A stretch of 64,000 nt of DNA from an uncultured virus (IMG/VR IMGVR_UViG_2831345111_000005) (lineage: Duplodnaviria > Heunggongvirae > Uroviricota > Caudoviricetes): IMG/VR virus record IMGVR_UViG_2831345111_000005. One strand, written 5' to 3'. The first letter of the stretch is position 1. Each line of letters starts with the position of its first letter. The translations under genes and the position numbers were made by a program. Below are positions 2-20,139 of this stretch, one piece after another. The notes below the pieces were generated by a model that had not been told where the DNA came from, searched no databases, and saw only the letters and a program-made list of their open reading frames with translations.

Positions 2-1576
2 CTGGGTGACGTCGTTGACCGTGGGCCTCAATCCATTGAGACCTTGAAGTTCGTCCGCCAGGCTATAGCGGTTGGGCACTTGATGGTCGCAGGTAATCAT
101 GAGCGCAAATTGCTGCAGTTCTGGGATTCACTCCAGACTGGGGCACCTCGCGCAAATTCTCCATCTGCTGCTGAAACGGCCATGGAGTTCATGAAGCTGC
201 GTGAGGAAGAACAGCAGGCTTTGATTCAGTTTGTCCGAAACCTGCCTGGCTTCTACACTGTGACCGACGGGCCACTCCAGCTTGCGTTTGCGCATGCACC
301 GCAGACGGCTTTTCATCCTTTCACGATTCTGCATTCTGAATGCCTGTATGGCGGGAATGAGTTGCCGGATTATGGCGATGAGGACGCCGACGGGATGTAT
401 GCGGAGAGCTATCGCAGCGGCGAATCACGGCACATGCTTATCCATGGGCACATCCCGTTGACGAGTATGCATCATTGCGTGTTCTCACTGGACGCCCACC
501 AAGCGTTTGCCGGAAACATGCTGGCCTTGCGCCTGGATGGATTCTTGGCTGACTGTCGCGAAAAGATGGCTCAAGAGGCCTTCAATGACAATCTCGTTTC
601 CCAAAAGTGCGAGTTTGACTTCGACGTACACAGCGCCAAGTTTGAACTGAAGCGTTCGCTGGATAAGCTGAAGACCGCCAAGATGGTGACCGTGCAAACG
701 GAGCCGTCGGCCGGCCTATCGCTCTACAAGTATTCGAAGCGTGTGTTTTTCGATGCATTGTGGGGTGAGAGCCCTTATCTCCTGAAGGCTCGCGGTATCG
801 TGCTTGACCTGGCTGGAAACATTGTCGTGCATCCGTTCGACAAGGTGTTTAACTATGGTGAAAACGGTGCCGGTCTCGATATCGCAGACGACCATCCGGT
901 CTACGCGGTTGAGAAGATGAATGGCTTCCTAGGCTGCATCAGTCGCCATCCTTGGAAGAATGAACTGCTGGTGACGAGCTCCGGGTCATTCGACTCGCCG
1001 TTCGTTGACTACATCAAGTCGTTCATCACGCCGGCATTGAAGGGGCTGCTCCTCTCGTACTTCTCGCGCAACAACGTGACGCTCATGTTCGAGGTTCTGC
1101 ATCCGGAAGACCCGCACATCATCCAGTACCGGCCGCAAGACATGGGCCTTTGGTTGATTGGTGGGCGAGGTAAGGAGCAGGGCGCTGAGCCGATAACGGA
1201 AGATGAGTTGGACGAAATCGGGTTGATGTTGACCGTGAATCGTCCGGAGTGGTTCTACACGTCGTTCGGGCAGCTGAAGGAAAAGGTGGCCACCTCCCGA
1301 CTGGAAGGCTATATGGTTCGGGATGCGAAGTCACACAAGACGCTCTTGAAGTTCAAGACGCCTTATTACCTTGTGACCAAGTTCCTCGGCCGTATGAGCG
1401 ACACCAAGGTACGGCACATGTTCTGTCATCCTAAGGGATTCAAGAAGGACATCGATGAGGAGTTCTACCCGTTGGTCGACCACCTGGTCACCACAACCTC
1501 GGAGACTGACTTCTTGGCGCTGCCGGATACAGAACGTGTAGTCCTGGTGCGAGACGCAATTCAAGCACTGCGCTAA
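2..1576 (+). CDS. Metallophosphoesterase - T4 Rnl1-like RNA ligase fusion (Pnkp-like RNA repair enzyme), 5' truncated by window
   Basis: Frame is open from base 2: LGDVVDRG, GNHE and HGH calcineurin-like phosphoesterase motifs; C-terminal ARGIVLD, KVFNYGE, EKMNG (ligase motif I KxNG), FEV, EGYMV, KFK. Confidence 0.85.
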   Translation: MGDVVDRGPQSIETLKFVRQAIAVGHLMVAGNHERKLLQFWDSLQTGAPRANSPSAAETAMEFMKLREEEQQALIQFVRNLPGFYTVTDGPLQLAFAHAPQTAFHPFTILHSECLYGGNELPDYGDEDADGMYAESYRSGESRHMLIHGHIPLTSMHHCVFSLDAHQAFAGNMLALRLDGFLADCREKMAQEAFNDNLVSQKCEFDFDVHSAKFELKRSLDKLKTAKMVTVQTEPSAGLSLYKYSKRVFFDALWGESPYLLKARGIVLDLAGNIVVHPFDKVFNYGENGAGLDIADDHPVYAVEKMNGFLGCISRHPWKNELLVTSSGSFDSPFVDYIKSFITPALKGLLLSYFSRNNVTLMFEVLHPEDPHIIQYRPQDMGLWLIGGRGKEQGAEPITEDELDEIGLMLTVNRPEWFYTSFGQLKEKVATSRLEGYMVRDAKSHKTLLKFKTPYYLVTKFLGRMSDTKVRHMFCHPKGFKKDIDEEFYPLVDHLVTTTSETDFLALPDTERVVLVRDAIQALR

Positions 1577-1643: not shown

Positions 1644-2316
1644 ATGAAATTAACGCTGGAGATTCGCGCCGCCGAGGGCGGTGAAGATGCCAAGCTCCTG
1701 GTTCATGACCAGGCAGCCATTTATCAACGCTATGCCGCACGTAACGGCATCAAGGCGTCTGTGGAGACACGGGGCCACCTTTGACCTGGTAACTCTCGAG
1801 GGACCAGCAGAAATTCTTGCCATCCTGCGCAATGAGGCCGGCGGCCATCGCTGGCAACGCGTACCTCCGACCGAACGCAAGGGCAGGATGCAAACCAGTA
1901 CCGTCACCGTTGCCGTAATGGAGGGTGAAAAATACGCTCCTTTACAGCTGAATGTGAACGATATCCAGGAGAGAGTAACAAAGGGGACTGGTCCAGGCGG
2001 GCAGAATCGAAACAAGCGATTAACCGCCATAATCCTCAAAGACCGCCTAACCGGTATCGAAGTAAAGGCTGAGGCCGAGCGCACACTTGAAGCAAACCGT
2101 CGAGTGGCCATGGCCACCTTGCGCGAGCGAGTCTTGGCTTATTACGCAGAGCGGGCGGCACAGGCCGAGAACAGTTTCCGCAAATCACAAGTTGGGACGG
2201 GCGCTCGGGGTGACAAGATACGCACTTATCGTGCGGACGGGGTGACTGACCATCGCACAGGAAAAAGAGCGGCATTGAGTTCAGTTGAAGCCGGCAAGCT
2301 TGACCTGTTGCTGTAA
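1644..2316 (+). CDS. Class I release factor homologue (RF1-type PxT motif, GGQ, lacks domain 1), made by predicted +1 frameshift at 1779-1785; about 223 aa
   Basis: AAGGAG RBS, ATG 1644. Frame 0: LEIRAAEGGEDA...RGHL-stop. +1 frame: DLVTLEG...EAGGHRWQRVPPTERKGRMQTSTVTVAV...GPGGQNRNK...GDKIRTY...VTDHR. The joined product is colinear with RF1 domains 2-4. Confidence 0.88.
1770..1785 (+). promoter_or_regulatory. prfB-type programmed +1 ribosomal frameshift site
   Basis: CGG GGC CAC CTT TGA C versus E. coli prfB AGG GGG TAT CTT TGA C; SD-like G-run at the same spacing. Confidence 0.85.
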
Positions 2317-2715: not shown

Positions 2716-3501
2716 CTAGGTGCCGTTGTGAATCAGAATGTAGCTGAGGTCGTTCTCGCGAGCATCTGCGAGGACCGGCACCAGCTTTTCCGGGATGTCC
2801 TTGTAAGTCCGGCTCATATTGAGCATGAACTCCCAGACACCCGCACCCTTGCCATTGTCACGGTGAGCATAGCTTGCGTTTTCCTGCACCCAGGCCCACT
2901 CAGGTGAAGCCTCCGGTTCAACGTCCTCACCGAGGATGTCGCTCATGGAGATGTCTCCAATCGTGGACTTGTTACCTGCGTTGAAGATGGGTTTTGTTTC
3001 AGGCGCTGCCAGTCCGGTCAATTCAAGTGCCTTGAGGGCCACTCGATTCCCGGTTGACGCCGCATTCCGCACAAAAGACAAGGCTGCCGCATCATCTGGA
3101 AAGCTATCTTCATCGTCATCACGCTGAAGGCTCAATACAACCTTGCCGTCGACGATAGTCTCGAACAAGTCCCAGCCATCGGCTTGCGCGGCCGCAGAAT
3201 CGGCAGTCGTCCAGCACAGTGTCTGCAGATACTCCAGCGCTTCCTCGATGGTTTCGTGATAGCGGCCTTCTCCAGACTCTGCGAGGTCAAACGGCACATC
3301 GCTGTGGTACTCAACCCCATCCCAACTCAACCCAAAGACCTGCCCATCCAGACGCTCAACGAGGGTGACCTCGCCTTCCCAGCCTAGCTCGTAGGCCAGG
3401 TAGTTATTGGTACCAGGCTCATAGGGATTCAGCTTGGGAATGCCGATGCCGCTTGCTTGTTTTGCGTTGTCGACGATGGTGTTCAATGCTGCGTTGCTCA
3501 T
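2716..3501 (-). CDS. Hypothetical acidic protein
   Basis: 261 aa ORF, AAGGAG RBS. Confidence 0.7.
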   Translation of the reverse strand: MSNAALNTIVDNAKQASGIGIPKLNPYEPGTNNYLAYELGWEGEVTLVERLDGQVFGLSWDGVEYHSDVPFDLAESGEGRYHETIEEALEYLQTLCWTTADSAAAQADGWDLFETIVDGKVVLSLQRDDDEDSFPDDAAALSFVRNAASTGNRVALKALELTGLAAPETKPIFNAGNKSTIGDISMSDILGEDVEPEASPEWAWVQENASYAHRDNGKGAGVWEFMLNMSRTYKDIPEKLVPVLADARENDLSYILIHNGT

Positions 3502-7898: not shown

Positions 7899-7974
7899 GG
7901 CCCCATAGCCAAGTGGTTAAGGCAGGGAACTTTAAATTCTCCATTCGAGGGTTCGAACCCCTCTGGGGCCACCA
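7899..7974 (+). tRNA. tRNA with anticodon TTA (ochre suppressor, tRNA-Sup), Gln-like D arm and variable loop
   Basis: 76 nt cloverleaf: acceptor GGCCCCA/TGGGGCC + A-CCA; D GCC-AAGTGGTTAA-GGC; anticodon stem GGGAA/TTCTC with loop CT-TTA-AA (7932-7934); T arm GAGGG-TTCGAAC-CCCTC. Confidence 0.92.
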
Positions 7975-8303: not shown

Positions 8304-8332
8304 TTGACAAGTATCAGATAATCAGATATGCT
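8304..8332 (+). promoter_or_regulatory. sigma70-type promoter
   Basis: TTGACA-17 bp-TATGCT upstream of the tRNA-like RNA. Confidence 0.65.
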
Positions 8333-8358
8333 ATATTCATATTGTTAATATTTAAGTT

Positions 8359-8553
8359 AAACTTCATTGCACGGCGGTAGCTCAAATGGCTTATGGTGAG
8401 GCTGCAGACTTGCTATAAGCACGCTTGACTAAGGCATGGGTGAGCCCACAAGGCCTGTGGAGGTAATCTGTGAACAATTTCTTGCGTGTAGAGCAATCCA
8501 AAGATAATGGAAAGGTCGTTGGTTCGAGTCCAGCCCGCCGTGCAATGAAGTTT
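8359..8553 (+). ncRNA. tRNA-like RNA with a ~100 nt structured D-loop insertion and a 19-bp terminal stem
   Basis: AAACTTCATTGCACGGCGG pairs perfectly with CCGCCGTGCAATGAAGTTT; TA-GCTC-AAATGG[insert]TA-GAGC; TCCA-AAGATAA-TGGA; AGGTC; GTTGG-TTCGAGT-CCAGC; no CCA. Confidence 0.75.
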
Positions 8554-8754: not shown

Positions 8755-9117
8755 ATGACCACCACTAACCTCAATACCACCATCCTGACCTCGGACGAGC
8801 GTCGCACGCTTACAGCCGCTTGGAGCGCTTTCCATGCCTCCGGGGAGGCGCGCGCAGAGGATTTCATTCTCTACGCCATCCTTCGAGGCAAGAACCCCAA
8901 GACTGGATTCACGCGCATCACCAACCCCAAGAAGCTGGCAAACGGTCTTCGTGAGTTTGGGGGCTACCAACATGCTCTTGACATGCTTGGCCGAGCCTAT
9001 AAGGGGCCGCTGACTCGCAAGCTTGCTCTATGTTTCCCTGGCCTTCGCGGTGAGCGCTTCAATGAGCTTCTGGATGCCATCTCGGCTGCCATCGAAGCAG
9101 CTCGAAAGGAGGCTTAA
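8755..9117 (+). CDS. Hypothetical protein, first gene of the Pth2-like operon
   Basis: GGAG RBS, 120 aa. Confidence 0.7.
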   Translation: MTTTNLNTTILTSDERRTLTAAWSAFHASGEARAEDFILYAILRGKNPKTGFTRITNPKKLANGLREFGGYQHALDMLGRAYKGPLTRKLALCFPGLRGERFNELLDAISAAIEAARKEA

Positions 9118-9118
9118 G

Positions 9119-9460
9119 ATGCATAAGCCCTACTCATACCTCATGGTGCGTGAAGACATCCCCCTCGAGCACCAGATGGTGCAGTTGGGCCATGCGGCCC
9201 TCGAGGCCGGCTTCAGCTTTAATCGCCCGGCCGAGACTTCCTACCTCATCCTCCTGGCGGCGAAGAACCAGGAGGAGCTGGTTCGCACGGCAGAGGAGCT
9301 CGCGGACCTTGGCATCGAGCATCACATGTTCTATGAGCCCGACTTCGGGCCCATGGGCCACTCTGCGCTGGCCACGAGGCCGCTCTTCGGAGATGAGCGT
9401 AAGCACATGCGGAAATATCGGCTGTACAAGGCAAAACAACCCATGATGGAGACCTGCTGA
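9119..9460 (+). CDS. Second, divergent Pth2-superfamily peptidyl-tRNA hydrolase-like protein
   Basis: YLMVREDI...QMVQLGHAALE...LILL...FYEPD...SALATRP. Confidence 0.65.
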   Translation: MHKPYSYLMVREDIPLEHQMVQLGHAALEAGFSFNRPAETSYLILLAAKNQEELVRTAEELADLGIEHHMFYEPDFGPMGHSALATRPLFGDERKHMRKYRLYKAKQPMMETC

Positions 9461-13082: not shown

Positions 13083-13979
13083 ATGTTAACAGTCGCCGTA
13101 AGTAGCCGTGCATTATTTAATCTTGAAGACGGAAATACCATCTTCCAGACGGAGGGATGGGCTGCATTTGACGCCTACATGCGTAAAAATGAGAAGAAGC
13201 CTCTTCGTCCAGGGGTTGCCTTCCCGGTCATCCAGAAGCTGCTTGCCCTCAACATTGAAGGTGCTCCCCGCAAGGTGGATGTCATTCTACTGTCGAGTAA
13301 TACCTTGGATGCGGGCGCTCGCGTAATGAATTCGGTTCGCCATTACGGCCTGAACATCGACCGTGCATTCTTCACTTCGGGTGGCAACCGATTTTCCATC
13401 GCACAAGCCGGTAATGTGACGCTGTTCCTGTCAACCAACCCTGATGAAGTGCGTCGCGCGCTTGACCGGGGCATTGCAAGTGCTTGTGTGCAACCTCATT
13501 CGCACGTAGGCGAGTCTGCGCCTGGCATACGCATCGCGTTTGATGGCGACTCCGTCCTGTTTGATGACTCGGCCGAACGGGTAAACCATGAATCAGGCTT
13601 GGCCGCATTCACGCAGAATGAGCAGAAGCAAGCCAGGATTCCGTTGGGAGCAGGTCCATTCAAGCCTGTATTACAGGCCCTGCAGGAGATTCAGGAGAGC
13701 TACGCCGACGCTGCTGATTGCCCAATACGCGTCGCGCTGGTAACGGCGCGTAGTGTGTCAGCTTATGAGCGTGTTCTGCATACCTTCCGTACCTGGCGGG
13801 TCAAGGTGGATGAGTGCTTCCTGTGCGGCGGCCTTCCGAAAGGACCCTTCCTCGCAGCATTTGGCGCAGACCTGTTTTTCGATGACGGTATGCATAACAT
13901 CGAGTCCGCAGCGCAGTACGTGCCATCGGGCCATGTCCCACACGGCGTCGCGAACCAGGAAATGGCCGTTACCGCATAA
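13083..13979 (+). CDS. 5'-nucleotidase (cN-I-like HAD family)
   Basis: VAVSSRALF, RIAFDGDSVLF, GPFK, ALVTAR, FFDD, HVP.G. Confidence 0.88.
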   Translation: MLTVAVSSRALFNLEDGNTIFQTEGWAAFDAYMRKNEKKPLRPGVAFPVIQKLLALNIEGAPRKVDVILLSSNTLDAGARVMNSVRHYGLNIDRAFFTSGGNRFSIAQAGNVTLFLSTNPDEVRRALDRGIASACVQPHSHVGESAPGIRIAFDGDSVLFDDSAERVNHESGLAAFTQNEQKQARIPLGAGPFKPVLQALQEIQESYADAADCPIRVALVTARSVSAYERVLHTFRTWRVKVDECFLCGGLPKGPFLAAFGADLFFDDGMHNIESAAQYVPSGHVPHGVANQEMAVTA

Positions 13980-14314
13980 CGCATACTCAGCCGCATACCC
14001 ACCGAAGCCCGGCCATCGTGTCGGGCTTTTTCATTTCTACGAGGACGCCTCGGCCCAGCGAGGCCGAGATGGAGATGCTAACACCGCTCGTCCATCCTGG
14101 TTGGACAAAATTGAAGCTAACGCCGAAGGCGGGAAGGTGAGTGATTATCGCGAGGGTTCGGGGTTACGAAATTTGCATCCTAAGGGGGTTTCTGATGCGT
14201 CTTAATAAGCCTCCCATTTGATTTGGGATTACAAACTAGTGATTATAATATGATTACAGGGGTGTAAAATTGCCGTTTTAAATCTAATAATCAGTGACTT
14301 ACAAAATCACTCGC

Positions 14315-14395
14315 CGCCAATTATCCCGCACTTTGCCGCCAATTATCCCGCAGAAGCTCGCCAATTATCCCGCACCTGTCGCCAATTATCCCGCA
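14315..14395 (+). repeat. Four 16-bp iterons (putative oriV) with an AT-rich segment upstream
   Basis: CGCCAATTATCCCGCA at 14315, 14337, 14359, 14380 (period 22/22/21), directly upstream of rep. Confidence 0.85.
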
Positions 14396-14460
14396 CTTAC
14401 CTGCATTCTTTGGTATACTGGTATTATCGAATCGCCTCCGGCTTCTCTAGGAATATCGCT

Positions 14461-15360
14461 TTGCACGAATCAACCGCTGTCGCCGAATTATCGGGCTGGC
14501 TGCCAGAAGTGTTGGCACCTGCCACGCATTTAAGCCCCATTCCGAACGTCCTTGCTCGCTGCTCGATGTTTGCCGCGCGCACTGGTCGAGGTGCGGTAGG
14601 GAAGATAGTCTACAGGAAGCGTACCTTGTTAGCGGCGTATGGTGGCTACGAAATCTGGCAGGAGGCGGGGAGTCCGCATCTTACTCAGGACCATTTGGAT
14701 ATCTGGCTACTCCTCATAAAGGCTTCTTACGATAATCCTTTAAACCAGTCTGATAAAACGGTGACCGTTTCATTTGGCTACCGGGAGATGCTCCGTCACC
14801 TCGGTAAAACCGGAGGCGGCGCGGATATGGCTTGGCTGCGTGACAAGCTTACTGAAATGCGTATGGCTACCTACCGAATCACCTGCGGTGAGCAATTGAC
14901 GGTGACGGGTCTGGTTCATAAATTTACCCAGTCCCCAGGCGAGGATGGCCGATACGAGGTTCTGTTGGATGCTGAGCTCCGCAACCTTTTCTCTGCTGGG
15001 TGGACGCAACTCAATCTGGCGCATCGTCTTGCGCTGGCAGGTCGCACAAGTGCTCACGTCCTGGCGCAGTGGCTTCACGCGTTCTACTCAACCCATCGCT
15101 CACCTGTGCCTTTGGGGACACAGAAAATTCAGATGCTGTGCGGGCGGGCCGAGATGGAAGCGGGTAAATTCAATAAGCTCCTTCAAGAAGCCATTGAGCA
15201 TATCAACAATAGCACCATTGGGTGGAAGTGCGAGGTTAACAATGGGGTGGTATCCGTGAAAAAAGGAAGCCACACAAAATTAGCGCAGCGCGCTGGCCAC
15301 GAAAAATCTTCGAGGCCTAGGTATGATTTAGTGGCAGAAGAAGACGAGGAAGATATTTAA
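14461..15360 (+). CDS. TrfA-like plasmid replication initiator (start uncertain: TTG 14461 or 14410)
   Basis: IPNVLARCSMF, LTQDHLDIWL, LAQWLHAFYSTH; adjacent iterons. Confidence 0.75.
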   Translation: MHESTAVAELSGWLPEVLAPATHLSPIPNVLARCSMFAARTGRGAVGKIVYRKRTLLAAYGGYEIWQEAGSPHLTQDHLDIWLLLIKASYDNPLNQSDKTVTVSFGYREMLRHLGKTGGGADMAWLRDKLTEMRMATYRITCGEQLTVTGLVHKFTQSPGEDGRYEVLLDAELRNLFSAGWTQLNLAHRLALAGRTSAHVLAQWLHAFYSTHRSPVPLGTQKIQMLCGRAEMEAGKFNKLLQEAIEHINNSTIGWKCEVNNGVVSVKKGSHTKLAQRAGHEKSSRPRYDLVAEEDEEDI

Positions 15361-15413
15361 TCTTCACATGTTGCATATTTGAAGTTTAGTGATATACTTG
15401 TCTTGTTCGGATA

Positions 15414-15608
15414 AGGATGGGTTCAGCACTTTCATTTCTGACAAATGGCTTGCCGGGGCACCTTACGTGGACTAAAACTCTCCCGTAAGGACCGAAACCT
15501 CCCGCTTGGGGACGCAATCCTGAGCTAGTTGTGTGGCACGATAGCCACTCCCTTCCAGGCAGGTAGCCTTGGACGACCGAACCGGAATAGCCTTAGGGCA
15601 CCATCCTG
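15414..15608 (+). ncRNA. Structured RNA upstream of the Ro60-like gene (Y-RNA-like candidate)
   Basis: Extended -10 TGATATACT at 15390-15398; terminal stem AGGATGG/CCATCCT with an adjacent unpaired TTCAGCA; inner GGCT..CCGG/CCGG..AGCC stem and several hairpins. Confidence 0.55.
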
Positions 15609-15666
15609 TAAGCGGAGCCAGTTACACTGGTTCCGCTTGATTCTCTCCCTCAGCGATTAAACTCTT

Positions 15667-17073
15667 ATGCGGAAAACATTAAACGGCGCAGCTACATTCA
15701 AGACATCAGGCTCAGCCTGCCTTGACCTGTTCTCCATGATTGGAGCGGCACGCCGTCATCCCGCACAGCTTATTCAACTCTTTGAGCGTGCCCTGCGCGA
15801 AGACCAGGCGCTTGCCTTGCGTATCCTCCTGTGGTCGCGTGACGCCCGCGGAGGGGCGGGTGAGCGAGACACCTTCCGCAACGTCCTGCATTGGCTTGAG
15901 CGTAAGCGTCCAGAATTAGCGAGAAAGCTCATTGCCTCCTGGATTATTCCGGAGGTTGGCCGCTGGGATGACGTCTTAGGTGTAGCGACACCGGAACTGC
16001 GGGCCTTGGTCGCAAGCCAGGTAGCGCTTGTTTTAGCAGGCTCCATGGAAGCGTCACCTGACAGGTTGGCAGCTAAGTGGATGCCGCGCTCTGGCCCGGT
16101 CGCAGCTTGGCTCTGTAAGGCCCTTGGTATTTCCGAGGCCCAGTGGCGAAAGGGATTGGCCAAGATTTCCGATACCGTCGAGCAGCAAATGTCGGCAGGC
16201 AAGTGGAGTGGCATCCGCTATACCGCAGTCCCGTCTGTCGCGGCAACCCGCTATCAAAAGGCTTTTGCGCGCCACGATAAGCGCTATGCGACCTACATCG
16301 AGGACGTTACAGCGGGTAAGGCAACCATGCATGCGGGAGTGGTGTTCCCGCACGATGTTGTTAAGGCAAGCGCTGTGCATGATGCGGCAGCGACTGCGCA
16401 GTGGACGCAATTGCCCCGTCCTGCTATTGCAGGCAAGGCGCTGGTGCTATCTGATGTATCCTCGTCAATGATACGGCGTATTGGCGGCAATACCCTCGCA
16501 ATCGAAGTCTCCATTGCGCTTGGCCTGTTGCTTTCAGAAGCGCTGCCTGAGCCCTTCAAGAATAAGGTCTTGATGTTCTCAGCCCAACCAGAGTTCCACA
16601 CGGTGAAAGGCAATACGCTGCATGAGCGTGTAACCAATCTCACCAGCGGGATGTGGAGCATGAGCACCAACATACAGGCTGCTTTCGATAAAATTCTCTC
16701 GATGGCACGAGAAGCCGGCGCGGGGTTCGAGATGCCAGAAGCACTCATCATCCTCTCCGACATGGAGTTCGATGAGGCAGACGCCAAGGGATGGACAAAC
16801 TTTGAGGTCGCACGCAGGAAGTTTGAGCGGGCTGGCTTTAAGATGCCGTTAATGGTGTTCTGGAACCTGGCGGGCAGAGCCGGCAATGCCCCTGTGCGCG
16901 CCAATACCCCTGGTGTTGTTTTGTTGTCAGGATATTCCCCTCGTATTCTGGACGCGGTCCTCGCGGGAAACTATGAGCAGCTCACCCCAACTATACTGAT
17001 GCGTCAGGCCGTCTATATAGCACGGTACGACATTCCAGGGTTAACCATCCCGACAAAGTTAATCCTGACGTAA
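15667..17073 (+). CDS. DUF2828-family, Ro60/TROVE-like protein with a C-terminal vWA domain
   Basis: RDARGGAGERDTF, GRWDD, AAKWMPR, MIDAS DVSSSM, STNIQAAF, ILSDMEFD, FWNL, SGYSP. Confidence 0.8.
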   Translation: MRKTLNGAATFKTSGSACLDLFSMIGAARRHPAQLIQLFERALREDQALALRILLWSRDARGGAGERDTFRNVLHWLERKRPELARKLIASWIIPEVGRWDDVLGVATPELRALVASQVALVLAGSMEASPDRLAAKWMPRSGPVAAWLCKALGISEAQWRKGLAKISDTVEQQMSAGKWSGIRYTAVPSVAATRYQKAFARHDKRYATYIEDVTAGKATMHAGVVFPHDVVKASAVHDAAATAQWTQLPRPAIAGKALVLSDVSSSMIRRIGGNTLAIEVSIALGLLLSEALPEPFKNKVLMFSAQPEFHTVKGNTLHERVTNLTSGMWSMSTNIQAAFDKILSMAREAGAGFEMPEALIILSDMEFDEADAKGWTNFEVARRKFERAGFKMPLMVFWNLAGRAGNAPVRANTPGVVLLSGYSPRILDAVLAGNYEQLTPTILMRQAVYIARYDIPGLTIPTKLILT

Positions 17074-17192
17074 CATGCAGAATTAATGCGGCAAAATTGT
17101 TAATTAAGGCAAGTTAACACTTGCCTTTTTTCATTTATTCTGCTATAGTTACACCATCGCAATCAGCAATGAAATACCAGGAGGATTCCTCA

Positions 17193-18344
17193 ATGGCTAA
17201 GCAGGATTTAGTAGTTCGCGCACTGGACTTGGGTTCCGGTTTTGTAAAATTGAGCAAGAAGACGGAAAATGGCCTCGAGTTCATGAGCTTCCCGTCGCTT
17301 GCCCCGCGCCATACCGGCCGCGACCTCTCGATGTCGCTTTTGGGTAAGCGGGATACTGTTGTGGTGACGGTTGAGGGGACGCAGTATGAGGTTGGCCCGG
17401 ATAGCGGCGACCTCGATACCAACGACGCTACCCGCAACCTGAACGACCAATACATATATACCGACCAATACAAGGCTTGTTTCTACGGCGCCCTGCACTA
17501 CATGGGTGAGTCAACTATCGACCTGCTGGTTGTTGGTTTGCCGCTTACAACCTTGCATCGTGCTGCAGACCTCAAAGCAATGATGGAGGGTACGCATGTT
17601 ATCAATGAAGATGAGACGGTAACGGTCAAACAGGCGCTGGTTCTGGCTCAGCCGATGGGCGGCCTGCACTATTGCTTGTCGCTGGAAGACACGGTGCCTG
17701 AGTTCGAGTTTCTCCGTGATGAAACCAACCTCATCATCGACCCCGGCTACCTGACCTTTGACTTCCTGGTCACTAACGGTGAAAAAATTAACGACCCTCG
17801 CAGTTCGGCCCACCCTGGCGGTGTCTCCAAGGTGCTGCGCGCGATTGCGGAATCGATTTCCAACAAGTTTGGCATGAAGTATGACAACCTGACCGCCATT
17901 GACCGCGCTATCGAGCGCCGTCGCATCAAGATTAGCGGCCAAGTGGAAGATATGCTCGAGCATATCAGAAATGCGCGTGCCGCCATTGAAGGCTCGGTTA
18001 ACTACCTGCGCAACATTGCGGGGGATGGCTCTGATATCGACAACATCATCCTGATGGGTGGTGGCGAAAAAATCTTCAGCAAGACCATCCTGAACTATTA
18101 CAAGGACCACAAGATTTACGTGCTACCGGATGCCCAACTAGCGAACGTCAAAGGCTTCCAGGCCGCTGGCGAGAAGTTTGCCGGGGTGCCTGCTTCCCAG
18201 ACAAAAGCGGCAGATGCGCCCAAGGTTACTGTACTGACATGGGAGCCGCCAAAGCCAGCGCAAGCAGCTACCGCGGCACCAGCGGCGCAGCCTCAGGCCG
18301 CTGCGCCGGCACCACAGCCTGAGACCGAGGCCGAGGAAATCTAG
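17193..18344 (+). CDS. ParM/StbA-like actin-family ATPase (partition or PRTRC protein D-like)
   Basis: ALDLGSGFVK, LVVGLP, QPMGG, IIDPGYLTFD, MGGG, ANVKGF. Confidence 0.85.
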   Translation: MAKQDLVVRALDLGSGFVKLSKKTENGLEFMSFPSLAPRHTGRDLSMSLLGKRDTVVVTVEGTQYEVGPDSGDLDTNDATRNLNDQYIYTDQYKACFYGALHYMGESTIDLLVVGLPLTTLHRAADLKAMMEGTHVINEDETVTVKQALVLAQPMGGLHYCLSLEDTVPEFEFLRDETNLIIDPGYLTFDFLVTNGEKINDPRSSAHPGGVSKVLRAIAESISNKFGMKYDNLTAIDRAIERRRIKISGQVEDMLEHIRNARAAIEGSVNYLRNIAGDGSDIDNIILMGGGEKIFSKTILNYYKDHKIYVLPDAQLANVKGFQAAGEKFAGVPASQTKAADAPKVTVLTWEPPKPAQAATAAPAAQPQAAAPAPQPETEAEEI

Positions 18345-18471
18345 TCGCTTAAAGTAAAACAATGAAAAAGGGCGGCAATACCGCCCTTTTTTGTTAGAAA
18401 TGACTTTAAAGAAATTAATTGAAGTCACTTTAAGAAAAATCAAAACCTAACTGAAAATACTAGGAATTATC

Positions 18472-19416
18472 ATGGCAGACAGAACCAATTTGTTGTGGAC
18501 GGATGCTACTCTGAACGTTGTCACAGGCTGCGAAAAAATTTCGCAGGGCTGCAAGCATTGTTATGCCGAACGCGATTGGGCGCGTAACGCAGCCAAGCCG
18601 GGCACTGTGTACTTCGGTCGCAAATTCACTGATGTGATGTGCCATCCTGAGAGACTGGACCAGCCATTGCGCTGGACGCGTCCGCGCAAGATTTTCGTCA
18701 ACGCTATGTCGGACCTTTTTCACCATGACGTCCCGGACGCCTTCATCGACCAGATGTTTGCGGTGATGGCCCTTTGCCATCTGCTTGGGCGTGGGCACGT
18801 ATTCCAGATTCTGACAAAGCGCCCGGAGCGCATGTTTTTCTACTTAACGCACCCTGAGGTCAAGTCGCGCATCCTGGCCGAAATGCATAAGCTGGCCCCC
18901 AAGTGGGGTGTGAAAATGGTGGGGTTGGTATGGCCTGTACAGAACGCATGGCTAGGCGTTACTGCTGAGCACCAGGAAGCAGCTCTGGAACGTATCGTTT
19001 GGTTGCAGAAAACACCTGCGGCCATTCGCTGGGTAAGTGCGGAGCCGCTGATAGGGCCGCTGGACCTGTTATTTGCCCTTGAGAGTGACGCGCTCCCGTC
19101 AATCGACTGGGTGGTAGGCGGGGCGGAATCTGGAGATGGCGCGCGCCCGGCCGACTTGCGTTGGTTTCGTGCCTTGCGTGACCAGTGCCGCAAGGCCGGG
19201 AAGAAGTTCCTGTTCAAGCAGTGGGGAGCCTGGGCGCCGGCTACCTACGGCGCTCCTGAAGCCACTTGGCGCCTGCATGACGAGGCTACCAAACTACCGC
19301 TGGGTGAGTGGCACGCTATGCACGATTTTGGCGGCGGCGTAGGTGCAATCCATGCGGGCAGTTTTGATACCGGCCGCACCCTGGATGGGGAACTGATTGA
19401 GGAATACCCCGAGTAA
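18472..19416 (+). CDS. Phage Gp37/Gp68 (DUF5131) family protein
   Basis: WTDAT.N.VTGC.KIS.GC.HCYA, IFVNAMSDLFH, FQILTKRPER, SAEPL, GAESG, FKQWG. Confidence 0.88.
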   Translation: MADRTNLLWTDATLNVVTGCEKISQGCKHCYAERDWARNAAKPGTVYFGRKFTDVMCHPERLDQPLRWTRPRKIFVNAMSDLFHHDVPDAFIDQMFAVMALCHLLGRGHVFQILTKRPERMFFYLTHPEVKSRILAEMHKLAPKWGVKMVGLVWPVQNAWLGVTAEHQEAALERIVWLQKTPAAIRWVSAEPLIGPLDLLFALESDALPSIDWVVGGAESGDGARPADLRWFRALRDQCRKAGKKFLFKQWGAWAPATYGAPEATWRLHDEATKLPLGEWHAMHDFGGGVGAIHAGSFDTGRTLDGELIEEYPE

Positions 19417-19485
19417 TCTCGAGCAGGCCTGGATATGAAAAAACGGCAATCCATATGGGTTGCCGTTTTGTTTTGAGAAGGGTGA

Positions 19486-20139
19486 TTAACCTAGAATGAT
19501 AGTTGACCCAGAGAGCACATTTTCAATCCGGATACCGCGGCTTTCCAGCTGCTTGTATGCGGCATCTAAGCGAGACCGATTCGTCCAGTAGCCATTCAAT
19601 CCATCTGCGGCCATGCGTACTTCAACCTGCCAGGCTGCATCATCAAATGGACTGGGAAACATGCGAATATGGACCCAATCATAGCCGTCAGGACCGTCAG
19701 CCCGGTTGCACCTTGCCCGAACCTCCCACCAGCTTTCACTTTTTGTAGGGGATACCCGGCGTGGCTTCAGTTTATGCCTGACAGCGCAGCCAAGCGAAGT
19801 AAGGATTTCATGTGCTATCCGCAGCATGTATTCATTGAACTTAGCTTGATGTGCGGCCATTCCAGAACCCGCGTCCAGAATCATTTGAGCCCGTTTATAC
19901 AGCCCTAGGCGGAACAAATCATTGCTTTCCCCCAAGTCCTGCAAGGCAGTGGGAGTCATAGCCGATAGCCATCTCCACATTTCTTCCTCAGTGGCCATAT
20001 CCTGCCGAGGCATCCCGGCGGGATAAATCAGATACTTCCCTTGGCTTAGTCGAAGGGTGATGTGCGCCGGGCTGCCGGTAGACGTGAAGTAGCAGTAGGC
20101 GGGGGAAATAGCCAAGGCATAGTTGTTTGAAATTTCCAT
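19486..20139 (-). CDS. Hypothetical protein
   Basis: 217 aa, GAGG RBS. Confidence 0.65.
   Translation of the reverse strand: MEISNNYALAISPAYCYFTSTGSPAHITLRLSQGKYLIYPAGMPRQDMATEEEMWRWLSAMTPTALQDLGESNDLFRLGLYKRAQMILDAGSGMAAHQAKFNEYMLRIAHEILTSLGCAVRHKLKPRRVSPTKSESWWEVRARCNRADGPDGYDWVHIRMFPSPFDDAAWQVEVRMAADGLNGYWTNRSRLDAAYKQLESRGIRIENVLSGSTIILG

Follow-up and report, generated by a model that had tools for sequence, protein, structure and literature searches.

An insert-bearing, end-clamped tRNA-Ile-like gene on a huge phage-like replicon, possibly a non-decoding scaffold for self-pairing RNA loops

An unusual tRNA-shaped element, here called W, lies at positions 8359-8553 (plus strand) of a 64,000-nucleotide stretch of DNA, the window, from the uncultured virus record IMGVR_UViG_2831345111_000005. 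The window is G000:C7:66213-130212, part of contig C7 (225,409 bp, 54% GC), which from its gene content we call a putative huge phage-like or phage-plasmid replicon. W probably derives from tRNA-Ile(GAU) and probably no longer decodes, and its sequence suggests a separately promoted RNA gene of about 195 to 215 nt. Our reading, held at slightly less than even confidence, is that W is a tRNA-Ile scaffold which is maintained without decoding and presents self-pairing loops. It draws on the fold of W, on the exact point at which the D loop is interrupted by an insert, on a terminal helix, the 'clamp', that lengthens the acceptor stem and recurs in other genes (one of them, W2, also on C7), on palindromic loops that shuffled sequences rarely produce, and on compensatory changes relative to a counterpart, V, on contig L046. 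The parts of W and its upstream region, with positions in the window, are as follows (MFE, minimum free energy).

8304-8332, plus strand: sigma-70-like promoter match, TTGACA-17-TATGCT (10 of 12 positions, consensus match only)
8359-8370, plus strand: 5' strand of the 12-bp leader/trailer clamp, which lengthens the acceptor stem (inspection, MFE fold)
8371-8377, plus strand: 5' strand of the acceptor stem, 7 nt (inspection, MFE fold)
8378-8389, plus strand: U8-A9, D stem GCTC (8380-8383) and 5' part of the D loop, AAATGG (A14 ... G18 G19)
8390-8420, plus strand: insert hairpin 1, 11-12 bp with an 8-nt loop, palindrome CTGCAG at 8402-8407
8421-8488, plus strand: insert hairpin 2, irregular, CACGC/GCGTG-closed, with palindrome AGGCCT in the apical loop at 8451-8456
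8489-8495, plus strand: end of the D loop (U20 A21), 3' strand of the D stem, GAGC (8491-8494), and position 26
8496-8512, plus strand: anticodon arm, loop AAGATAA (A33, A37 A38), anticodon GAT at 8503-8505
8513-8534, plus strand: 5-nt variable loop and T arm (8518-8534; GTTGG / TTCGAGT / CCAGC, canonical T loop)
8535-8553, plus strand: 3' strand of the acceptor stem (8535-8541) and trailer strand of the clamp (8542-8553)

The tRNA landmarks listed by a first-pass annotation of the window were all found, by sequence inspection, at the coordinates it gave. Inspection and the MFE fold together also bore out its description of a D-loop insert of about 100 nt, an 11-bp hairpin and a CACGC/GCGTG-closed domain, as well as a perfect 19-bp end stem, the lack of CCA and an anticodon loop AAGATAA without U33. 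The terminal helix pairs 8359-8377 with 8535-8553 over 19 bp without a mismatch, and a T.G at 8358/8554 extends it to 20. Within it, the sequence ...TTGC before position +1 opposes GCAA after position 72, which gives the pairs G73:C-1 and C74:G-2; no CCA is encoded, and positions 73-76 are GCAA, paired within the helix. The insert is 99 nt long (8390-8488), begins directly after the D-loop GG (G19) and is followed by TA, and its deletion in silico leaves a canonical 8-nt D loop. The insert occupies the variable pocket of that loop, where the L-shape has its outer corner, and does not disturb G18, G19 or the T loop. The cloverleaf has a 7-bp acceptor stem, a 4-bp D stem, a 5-bp T stem and the conserved D- and T-loop bases; no mispairing is seen in the 19-bp helix, the D stem or the T arm, and the D and T loops retain every base for tertiary contacts. 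What W lacks is the U33-bearing 7-nt anticodon loop on a 5-bp stem expected of a tRNA, since position 33 is A and the anticodon stem has only four standard pairs, plus an A.A at 27:43. Position A15 faces C48, and pair 3:70 is G-C.

The MFE fold of W recovers the cloverleaf, the 11-12-bp hairpin and the CACGC/GCGTG-closed domain. Its energy is -80.2 kcal/mol, compared to -57.5 +/- 4.25 for 200 dinucleotide shuffles (z = -5.34), none of which was as stable. ARAGORN, run with default settings, called the insert-deleted core as tRNA-Ile(gat); native full-length W was not called. An Rfam search of W, which the first-pass annotation had suggested, returned no family at the gathering threshold and seven weak matches at E <= 10, none of them overlapping W, and the tRNA model RF00005 had no match to W at either level. 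The same annotation had given W its own promoter. The site at 8304-8332 agrees with this as a consensus match and would place the transcription start about 18-20 nt 5' of the helix; four promoter-like sites were counted in 1.3 kb, compared to 1.4 +/- 1.4 in shuffles.

Other identities were tried and rejected. For a transfer-messenger RNA (tmRNA), there was no ARAGORN tmRNA call, no G3:U70 and no CCA, and a tmRNA-like tag encoded by an 11-codon ATG frame in the insert was dropped on the same grounds. A group I intron would be expected to have about 200 nt or more, a place in the anticodon loop and a P1-P9 core; the insert has 99 nt and sits in the D loop, and no Rfam intron or ribozyme family matched at E <= 10.

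The counterpart V was found on the minus strand of L046, at about 2979-3183; L046 is a 40.5-kb fragment (GC 39%, estimated to be 11% complete), and the identical element is present on two further contigs, the three being near-identical contigs of the same phage. V has a terminal helix of 18 bp with two mismatches, the same D arm, no CCA, and an insert of 110 nt at the same point after GG. Its anticodon loop, CTAATAA, contains U33 and the anticodon AAT (Ile). The T stem is the same in V and W, and the 5' D-arm region (8378-8389 in W) differs by one D-loop base. The fold of V has a z of -4.59, with 0 of 200 shuffles as stable, and ARAGORN with default settings called the insert-deleted V as tRNA-Ile(aat) and did not call it at full length. 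In the W/V alignment, 93.8% of cells were paired and 13 of 33 pairs had changed on both sides. These two-sided changes fell in the terminal helix (10 of 19 pairs) and the anticodon stem (3 of 5); slid controls gave at most 2. The replicons are otherwise unrelated, with GC contents of 54% versus 39% and two weakly similar ORFs in common. W and V have a design in common, and not a recent copy. An insertion that struck a dying gene at random, the case that the first-pass annotation had set against its own proposal, is excluded as the simplest account, since the architecture recurs with compensatory changes in an unrelated phage. Directly after V, at about 2893-2975 of L046 (minus strand), lies an 83-nt sequence with a 7-bp acceptor stem, a T-arm-like hairpin and an encoded ACCA; no D or anticodon arm is recognisable, and neither ARAGORN nor Rfam made a call.

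Relatives were then sought more widely. By blastn, W had no homologue in plasmids, one 45-nt T-arm-like match in phages, where V had none, and only T-arm matches of 19-31 nt in 60 related genomes. A D-arm/gap/T-arm pattern run over viral contigs gave L046 as the sole true match among the matches listed, almost all the rest being tandem tRNAs, and a tighter pattern gave three contigs, all of the phage that carries V. The pattern scan of one genome per species yielded a single match, a tandem-tRNA false positive. Metagenome contigs yielded 132 matches, and those listed were all tandem tRNAs or duplicated 5' tRNA pieces. No relatives of the ORFs at 8755-9117 and 9116-9460 of the window were found in viral contigs.

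Folded alone, the inserts of W and V each form two adjacent hairpins, a short one and then a longer, irregular one. The z values are -1.9 for the W insert, -3.3 for its hairpin 1 and -2.8 for the V insert. Hairpin 1 of W needs three G.U pairs, which points to a structure at the RNA level. No convincing common sequence was found between the two inserts, just a short AACAAYTT match in differing structural contexts, nor any boundary motif common to their edges. Their estimated GC content (about 51% in W, about 35% in V) resembles that of each one's own replicon, which suggests long residence.

The loops of these hairpins are palindromic. The sole 6-nt palindromes in the 195 nt of W are CTGCAG and AGGCCT, one per apical loop of the insert; in V, TGATCA and GCGCGC are likewise found one per apical loop, the only other palindrome being the trivial T-loop TTCGAA. 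At least two palindromic loops occurred in 6 of 3000 shuffled inserts for W and in 21 of 3000 for V; these were mononucleotide shuffles, loops were taken from the MFE folds, and a palindrome counted when at least 5 of its 6 bases lay within the loop. The predicted self-duplex energies of the four hexamers range from -5.0 to -10.9 kcal/mol, and on these predictions copies of W may pair loop to loop. As DNA words, CTGCAG (87 copies) and AGGCCT (48 copies) are not unusual in the 225-kb C7, and no convincing partner RNA with the same palindromes was found on C7. A further tRNA-like gene, at L292:5776-5900 (plus strand; identical in L293), keeps its acceptor, D and T arms and has two hairpins in place of the anticodon arm, both with the loop TTGATCA, which contains the palindrome of V hairpin 1; it is uncalled by ARAGORN, and its fold has a z of -0.15. 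Extra hairpins on a tRNA frame thus carry self-complementary loop hexamers in 2 of 2 cases in W, 2 of 2 in V and 2 of 2 in this gene. On a 115-kb viral contig, a CCA-bearing tRNA-like gene with anticodon loop CTGACCG (L087:5939-6040, plus strand) holds in its D loop a hairpin insert of about 30 nt with a UUCG loop, and has neither clamp nor palindromic tip.

To examine the clamp, the 3.69-Mb genome was scanned in full for T arms with at least 14 contiguous terminal pairs after them. There were three matches, namely W, W2 and one on contig C3 that was judged to be due to chance. Because the genome-wide scan gave only these three, the combination of terminal helix and T arm in W is not a chance pattern. 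The second gene is:

C7:48256-48365, plus strand: W2, tRNA-like, 110 nt, 17.9 kb upstream of the window start

In W2 the anticodon loop is CTGTTAA (GTT), the variable arm is long and the terminal helix has 20 bp; the gene lacks CCA and is the only one of Asn type among the ARAGORN calls on C7. The leader motif of W is present here as well: leader and trailer of the two genes are alike over about 22 nt, with ...CATTGC before +1 and GCAATG after 72. The same scan over 1.1 Mb of other loci gave four more clamped, CCA-less and otherwise canonical genes (Gln, Arg, Gln, Arg), on L024, L113 (two) and L219. The pairs G73:C-1 and C74:G-2 occur in W, W2 and all four of these, and do not occur in V despite its clamp. 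If the class is defined by flanks that pair over at least 12 bp in acceptor-stem register and by the absence of CCA, the extension of W has 12 bp. Clamped genes made up 2 of 7 tRNAs in one cluster stretch of G063 and 1 of 31 in G062, among CCA-bearing, unclamped neighbours, and the clamped copies are not recent duplicates of normal tRNA genes. We conclude that the clamp marks a wider class of CCA-less phage tRNA genes, present as one or two per tRNA cluster. This recurrence, like the palindromic loop tips and W2, had been missed by the first-pass annotation.

Flank pairing occurs on CCA-bearing phage tRNAs as well. The tRNA-Tyr of G063 (L274:2584-2667, minus strand) keeps its CCA and shows 13 more leader/trailer pairs past a 2-nt bubble, and in the tRNA-His of phage KVP40 (L278:480-572, plus strand) the leader pairs with the CCA and trailer. 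According to the part of a review available to us (PMC4810235), E. coli RNase III participates in T4 tRNA maturation, which makes a role of the clamp as a processing stalk plausible. No RNase III was found on C7, the single copy in the genome being on C21.

The surroundings of W are rich in tRNA-related functions. C7 carries 39 tRNA-type genes, 33 of them CCA-encoding, and a permuted tmRNA, mostly at 46-65 kb; among them is a canonical CCA-bearing tRNA-Ile(GAU) at C7:47717-47793. ARAGORN also reports a tRNA with a 4-base anticodon, tgat, in an 8-nt loop (C7:57416-57491, plus strand), and gives the permuted tmRNA the tag ANDESYRLVA (C7:20592-20974, minus strand). C7 encodes TrfA-like and ParM-like proteins, and PHROGs matches include DNA polymerases, a primase, both topoisomerase II subunits and ribonucleotide reductase; no clear virion protein was seen among the 58 large ORFs outside the window that were scanned. 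A CCA-adding tRNA nucleotidyltransferase is encoded at C7:208686-209930 (E = 3e-129 to phrog_2244). The neighbours of W in the window are:

2-1576, plus strand: kinase-phosphatase-Rnl1 RNA repair enzyme, C-terminal 524 aa, 6.8 kb upstream of W
1681-2316, plus strand: shortened RF-1-like protein, 211 aa
4566-5060, plus strand: PTH2 peptidyl-tRNA hydrolase
7899-7974, plus strand: suppressor tRNA, anticodon UUA, well-formed (66.8 bits), with its own predicted promoter and terminator
9116-9460, plus strand: weak second PTH2-like ORF
15667-17073, plus strand: DUF2828 + DUF7788 protein (phrog_850, E = 5e-120), 7.1 kb downstream of W

The suppressor tRNA is the only gene that ARAGORN calls in the region around W; with the RF-1-like protein, PTH2 and the PTH2-like ORF it makes up a small termination/rescue gene cluster. 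The full frame of the repair enzyme (C7:65575-67788) encodes a single polypeptide of about 737 aa with a P-loop polynucleotide-kinase-like N-terminus, a metallophosphatase and an Rnl1-type RNA ligase, and with these domains it appears to unite the complete heal-and-seal repair of RNA in one protein. HNH endonuclease genes lie 2.7 kb upstream of W in the window and about 1 kb from V.

The DUF2828 protein had been named by the first-pass annotation for a pull-down, as a candidate partner of W. Its homologues are found in 703 phage records; depositors annotate them as 'Ro-like RNA-binding protein', and one cites HHpred similarity to Deinococcus radiodurans Rsr. In mycobacteriophage LeBron, a YrlA-type match lies 125 nt downstream of the homologue (39.8 bits, E = 1.2e-6, below the gathering score of 69), and it served as positive control for the YrlA model, RF02553. 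This model had no match at W or in window 13900-19600, and its six weak matches over the whole genome (at most 29.7 bits, gathering 69), none of them at W, were taken as tRNA pairs. With no YrlA on C7, the Ro-like protein of C7 is left without a known RNA. No YrlA was found at E <= 0.01 in four proteobacterial phage DUF2828 loci. Model R1 found an insert-bearing RNA in 0 of 12 other DUF2828 loci (147,857 bases, or 148 kb), all eight matches being of 97 nt or less. DUF2828 occurs at seven loci in viral contigs (at most 46% identity), none with such an RNA, and was not found in the fragments of V's phage (11% complete), G062 (26%) and G063 (45%). Given the missing YrlA on C7, the R1 result and the absence of DUF2828 from these three fragments, sequence comparison does not support the proposed partnership.

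The segment directly upstream of the DUF2828 gene, window 15381-15650 (plus strand), contains a promoter-like TTGAAG-17-TATACT and, after it, about 250 nt that are GC-rich and untranslated; a strong 14-bp hairpin closes this stretch immediately ahead of the gene (fold z only -2.4). Rfam gave no match there, and the segment may be a leader, or else an RNA that partners the DUF2828 protein and has gone unrecognised. DUF2828 genes adjoin tRNA genes, or lie within a few kb of them, in Escherichia phage momo (L279), KVP40 (L278) and Stenotrophomonas phage DLP_6 (L277); in momo, more than 20 tRNAs form a cluster that starts 165 nt after the gene.

How could these features work together? Use of W on the ribosome is made doubtful by A33 and the mismatch at 27:43, C7 already has a canonical tRNA-Ile(GAU) with CCA, the clamp hides the acceptor end, and the elbow bears what looks like a display module with self-pairing tips. 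For these reasons we read W as a non-decoding tRNA-Ile frame. A tRNA-shaped scaffold or decoy had also been proposed in the first-pass annotation; the tRNA shape, the exact insertion and the locked acceptor end agree with it, and the loss of decoding is probable. In the mechanism that we propose, the tRNA body would still offer tRNA-binding proteins the shape of elbow and anticodon stem that they recognise, the clamp would stop charging and end-trimming, and the two palindromic loops would allow copies of W to pair loop to loop into dimers or chains, or to bind a symmetric partner. The combination of tRNA shape, clamp and self-pairing loops leads us to suggest that W may serve the phage, where it meets tRNA-directed enzymes, as a decoy or as a platform for assembly. 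A bolder version, speculative and on balance improbable, is that large phages carry a family of tRNA-framed RNAs, unchargeable because their ends are clamped, that form kissing-loop dimers or chains and so trap or organise tRNA-directed enzymes. These might be anticodon nucleases, synthetases, or repair or modification enzymes, of host or phage, and each assembly would show several tRNA bodies, here of the isoleucine type.

Several observations weigh against the scaffold reading. V keeps U33 and a better anticodon stem than W, and the whole family may therefore still decode. The other clamped tRNAs resemble functional isoacceptors, which means that a clamp by itself is no sign of a decoy. At least two independent insert-bearing members exist, W and V, with no more among the matches listed, and the covariation counts are weak because they come from two sequences and from a structure drawn from these same two. 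Hairpin 2 of W is not unusually stable when folded alone (z = -0.8), and three of the four palindromes reach one base into the closing pair. Finally, relatives of V's flanking protein (60-61% identity) are found without the element at the syntenic place; in the phage whose flanking protein is 61% identical, the tRNA-like gene at L292:5776-5900 lies about 1 kb beyond the empty site.

Among the rival explanations, the one to be taken most seriously, unlikely as we consider it, is that W is the precursor of a working tRNA-Ile. The clamp would then be a stalk cut by host RNase III, followed by RNase P and exonucleases; the CCA would come from C7's own enzyme, and the insert would be either tolerated or excised and sealed by the kinase-phosphatase-Rnl1 protein. 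To our knowledge, no described bacterial or phage enzyme excises a D-loop insert. Such a precursor would explain why the insertion is exact, its deletion yielding a tRNA-Ile that ARAGORN can call in both W and V, and why every tertiary-contact base of the D and T loops is intact. C7 encodes both the nucleotidyltransferase and the complete heal-and-seal enzyme, the other clamped genes look like ordinary isoacceptors, and V has U33. The RNase III role in T4 (PMC4810235) and the unexplained introns published for megaphage tRNAs (PMC6784885), as far as the available parts of these sources go, fit as well. It is less easily reconciled with A33, the A.A at 27:43 and A15 opposite C48 in W, with the canonical tRNA-Ile(GAU) on C7 and with the lack of an RNase III of C7's own. 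Excision and ligation, which the first-pass annotation had put forward, found no support: W and V have no boundary motif in common, no group I intron or ribozyme was detected at E <= 10, neither a splice motif nor an endonuclease was found, and the enzyme speaks only for the existence of a sealing activity. We regard it as quite unlikely that W is instead a Y-RNA-like partner of the Ro-like DUF2828/vWA protein, its terminal helix binding the protein and its tRNA-like module binding effectors. The 'Ro-like' annotations of DUF2828 + DUF7788 homologues, the LeBron match, a Ro-like protein on C7 without a known RNA and the T/D-arm layout of Yrn1, which as excerpted (PMC4201824) can be read as that of W, all speak for it. 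They are outweighed by the R1 result (0 of 12 loci), by the four proteobacterial phage loci without YrlA at E <= 0.01, by the lack of DUF2828 in the fragments of V's phage, G062 and G063 (11-45% complete), by a helix that in W is perfect and without bulge and has no motif in common with that of V, and by a DUF2828 gene 7 kb off and not adjacent.

That W is a functionless, decaying duplicate of tRNA-Ile with a chance insertion would account for A33, the 27:43 mismatch, redundancy with the canonical tRNA-Ile of C7, the lack of blastn homologues in 60 related genomes, plasmids or phages, and the patchy occurrence among relatives of V's phage. We hold this to be very unlikely, given an unrelated phage with the same insertion point, a clamp, an Ile anticodon and compensatory changes, the perfect 19-bp helix, D stem and T arm with their tertiary bases, an insert whose estimated composition matches its own replicon, palindromic loops at 4 of 4 tips and a promoter-like site. 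It seems hardly credible, in turn, that the features act as DNA, as sites which mark a mobile tRNA cassette and are recognised by a nuclease, a recombinase or another dimeric DNA-binding protein. HNH genes near both W (2.7 kb) and V (about 1 kb), leader and trailer starts of W and W2 that are alike over about 22 nt around differing tRNA bodies, as in a cassette frame, and the patchy distribution would suit such sites; tolerated G.U pairs, helices that covary like RNA helices, repeats that continue the acceptor stem exactly, and the ordinary frequency of CTGCAG and AGGCCT on C7 (87 and 48 copies) do not.

The scaffold reading can be set beside known systems. W resembles tRNA-Ile(GAU) (RF00005) in its 7-bp acceptor stem, D stem and loop with A14, G18, G19 and A21, 5-nt variable loop, canonical T arm, and anticodon GAU followed by A37 A38; it differs in the 99 nt after G19, A33, the A.A at 27:43, the lack of CCA and the locking of positions 73-76 within a 12-bp extension. 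When tRNAscan is used with its eukaryote settings, introns are placed at the anticodon-loop position. With such settings, short, unclassified and conserved 'enigmatic' introns without Rfam match or known splicing route were predicted in the tRNAs of Lak megaphages (Devoto et al. 2019, PMC6784885). Like W, these are huge-phage tRNA genes with unclassified inserts; a D-loop site, a clamp or palindromic loops are not described in the part of that paper available to us. With YrlA (RF02553) and Yrn1, as far as excerpts describe them, W would share a non-decoding RNA, a tRNA-like D/T-arm module, an end-to-end helix and a Ro-like protein in the genome. The orientation of the T and D arms relative to the RNA 5' end differs between the D. 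radiodurans RNAs Yrn1 and YrlA (Chen et al. 2014, PMC4201824, in the portion at hand). In YrlA the order is permuted, the T arm coming first, then a closed acceptor-like hairpin and the D arm, whereas W has tRNA order; W also has no model match, no visible GNCGAA-type motif and a large D-loop insert, and is not adjacent to the protein gene. The leader/trailer stalks of rRNA precursors likewise pair flanks over about 20 bp around a stable RNA, but the helix of W continues the acceptor stem unbroken and replaces the CCA end. Phage T4 encodes two small stable RNAs of unknown roles, RNAC and RNAD, among its tRNA genes (PMC3014915, as excerpted). They are like W in being encoded among phage tRNA genes, a likeness drawn from their description only. 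In kissing-loop hairpins, such as the retroviral dimerisation initiation site, a loop with a 6-nt self-complementary sequence pairs with a second copy; unlike these, W presents its palindromic loops on a tRNA scaffold, two different ones in each molecule, and their pairing is predicted.

The usual view is that phages carry tRNA genes to help with codon usage or to replace tRNAs cut by defence systems. W, V and the related designs suggest that large phages also remodel tRNA frames into non-decoding RNAs, by three repeatable edits: clamping of the ends, expansion of a surface loop at the elbow, and self-pairing loop tips. Such genes are missed entirely by ARAGORN and Rfam, and are therefore probably under-counted. 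If the loops drive RNA-RNA assembly, this would be a simple architecture without a described bacterial counterpart, and it may offer an explanation for the 'enigmatic introns' of megaphage tRNAs. If the bolder version of enzyme-trapping assemblies were true, the contest over tRNAs would include an RNA decoy or scaffold of a new kind.

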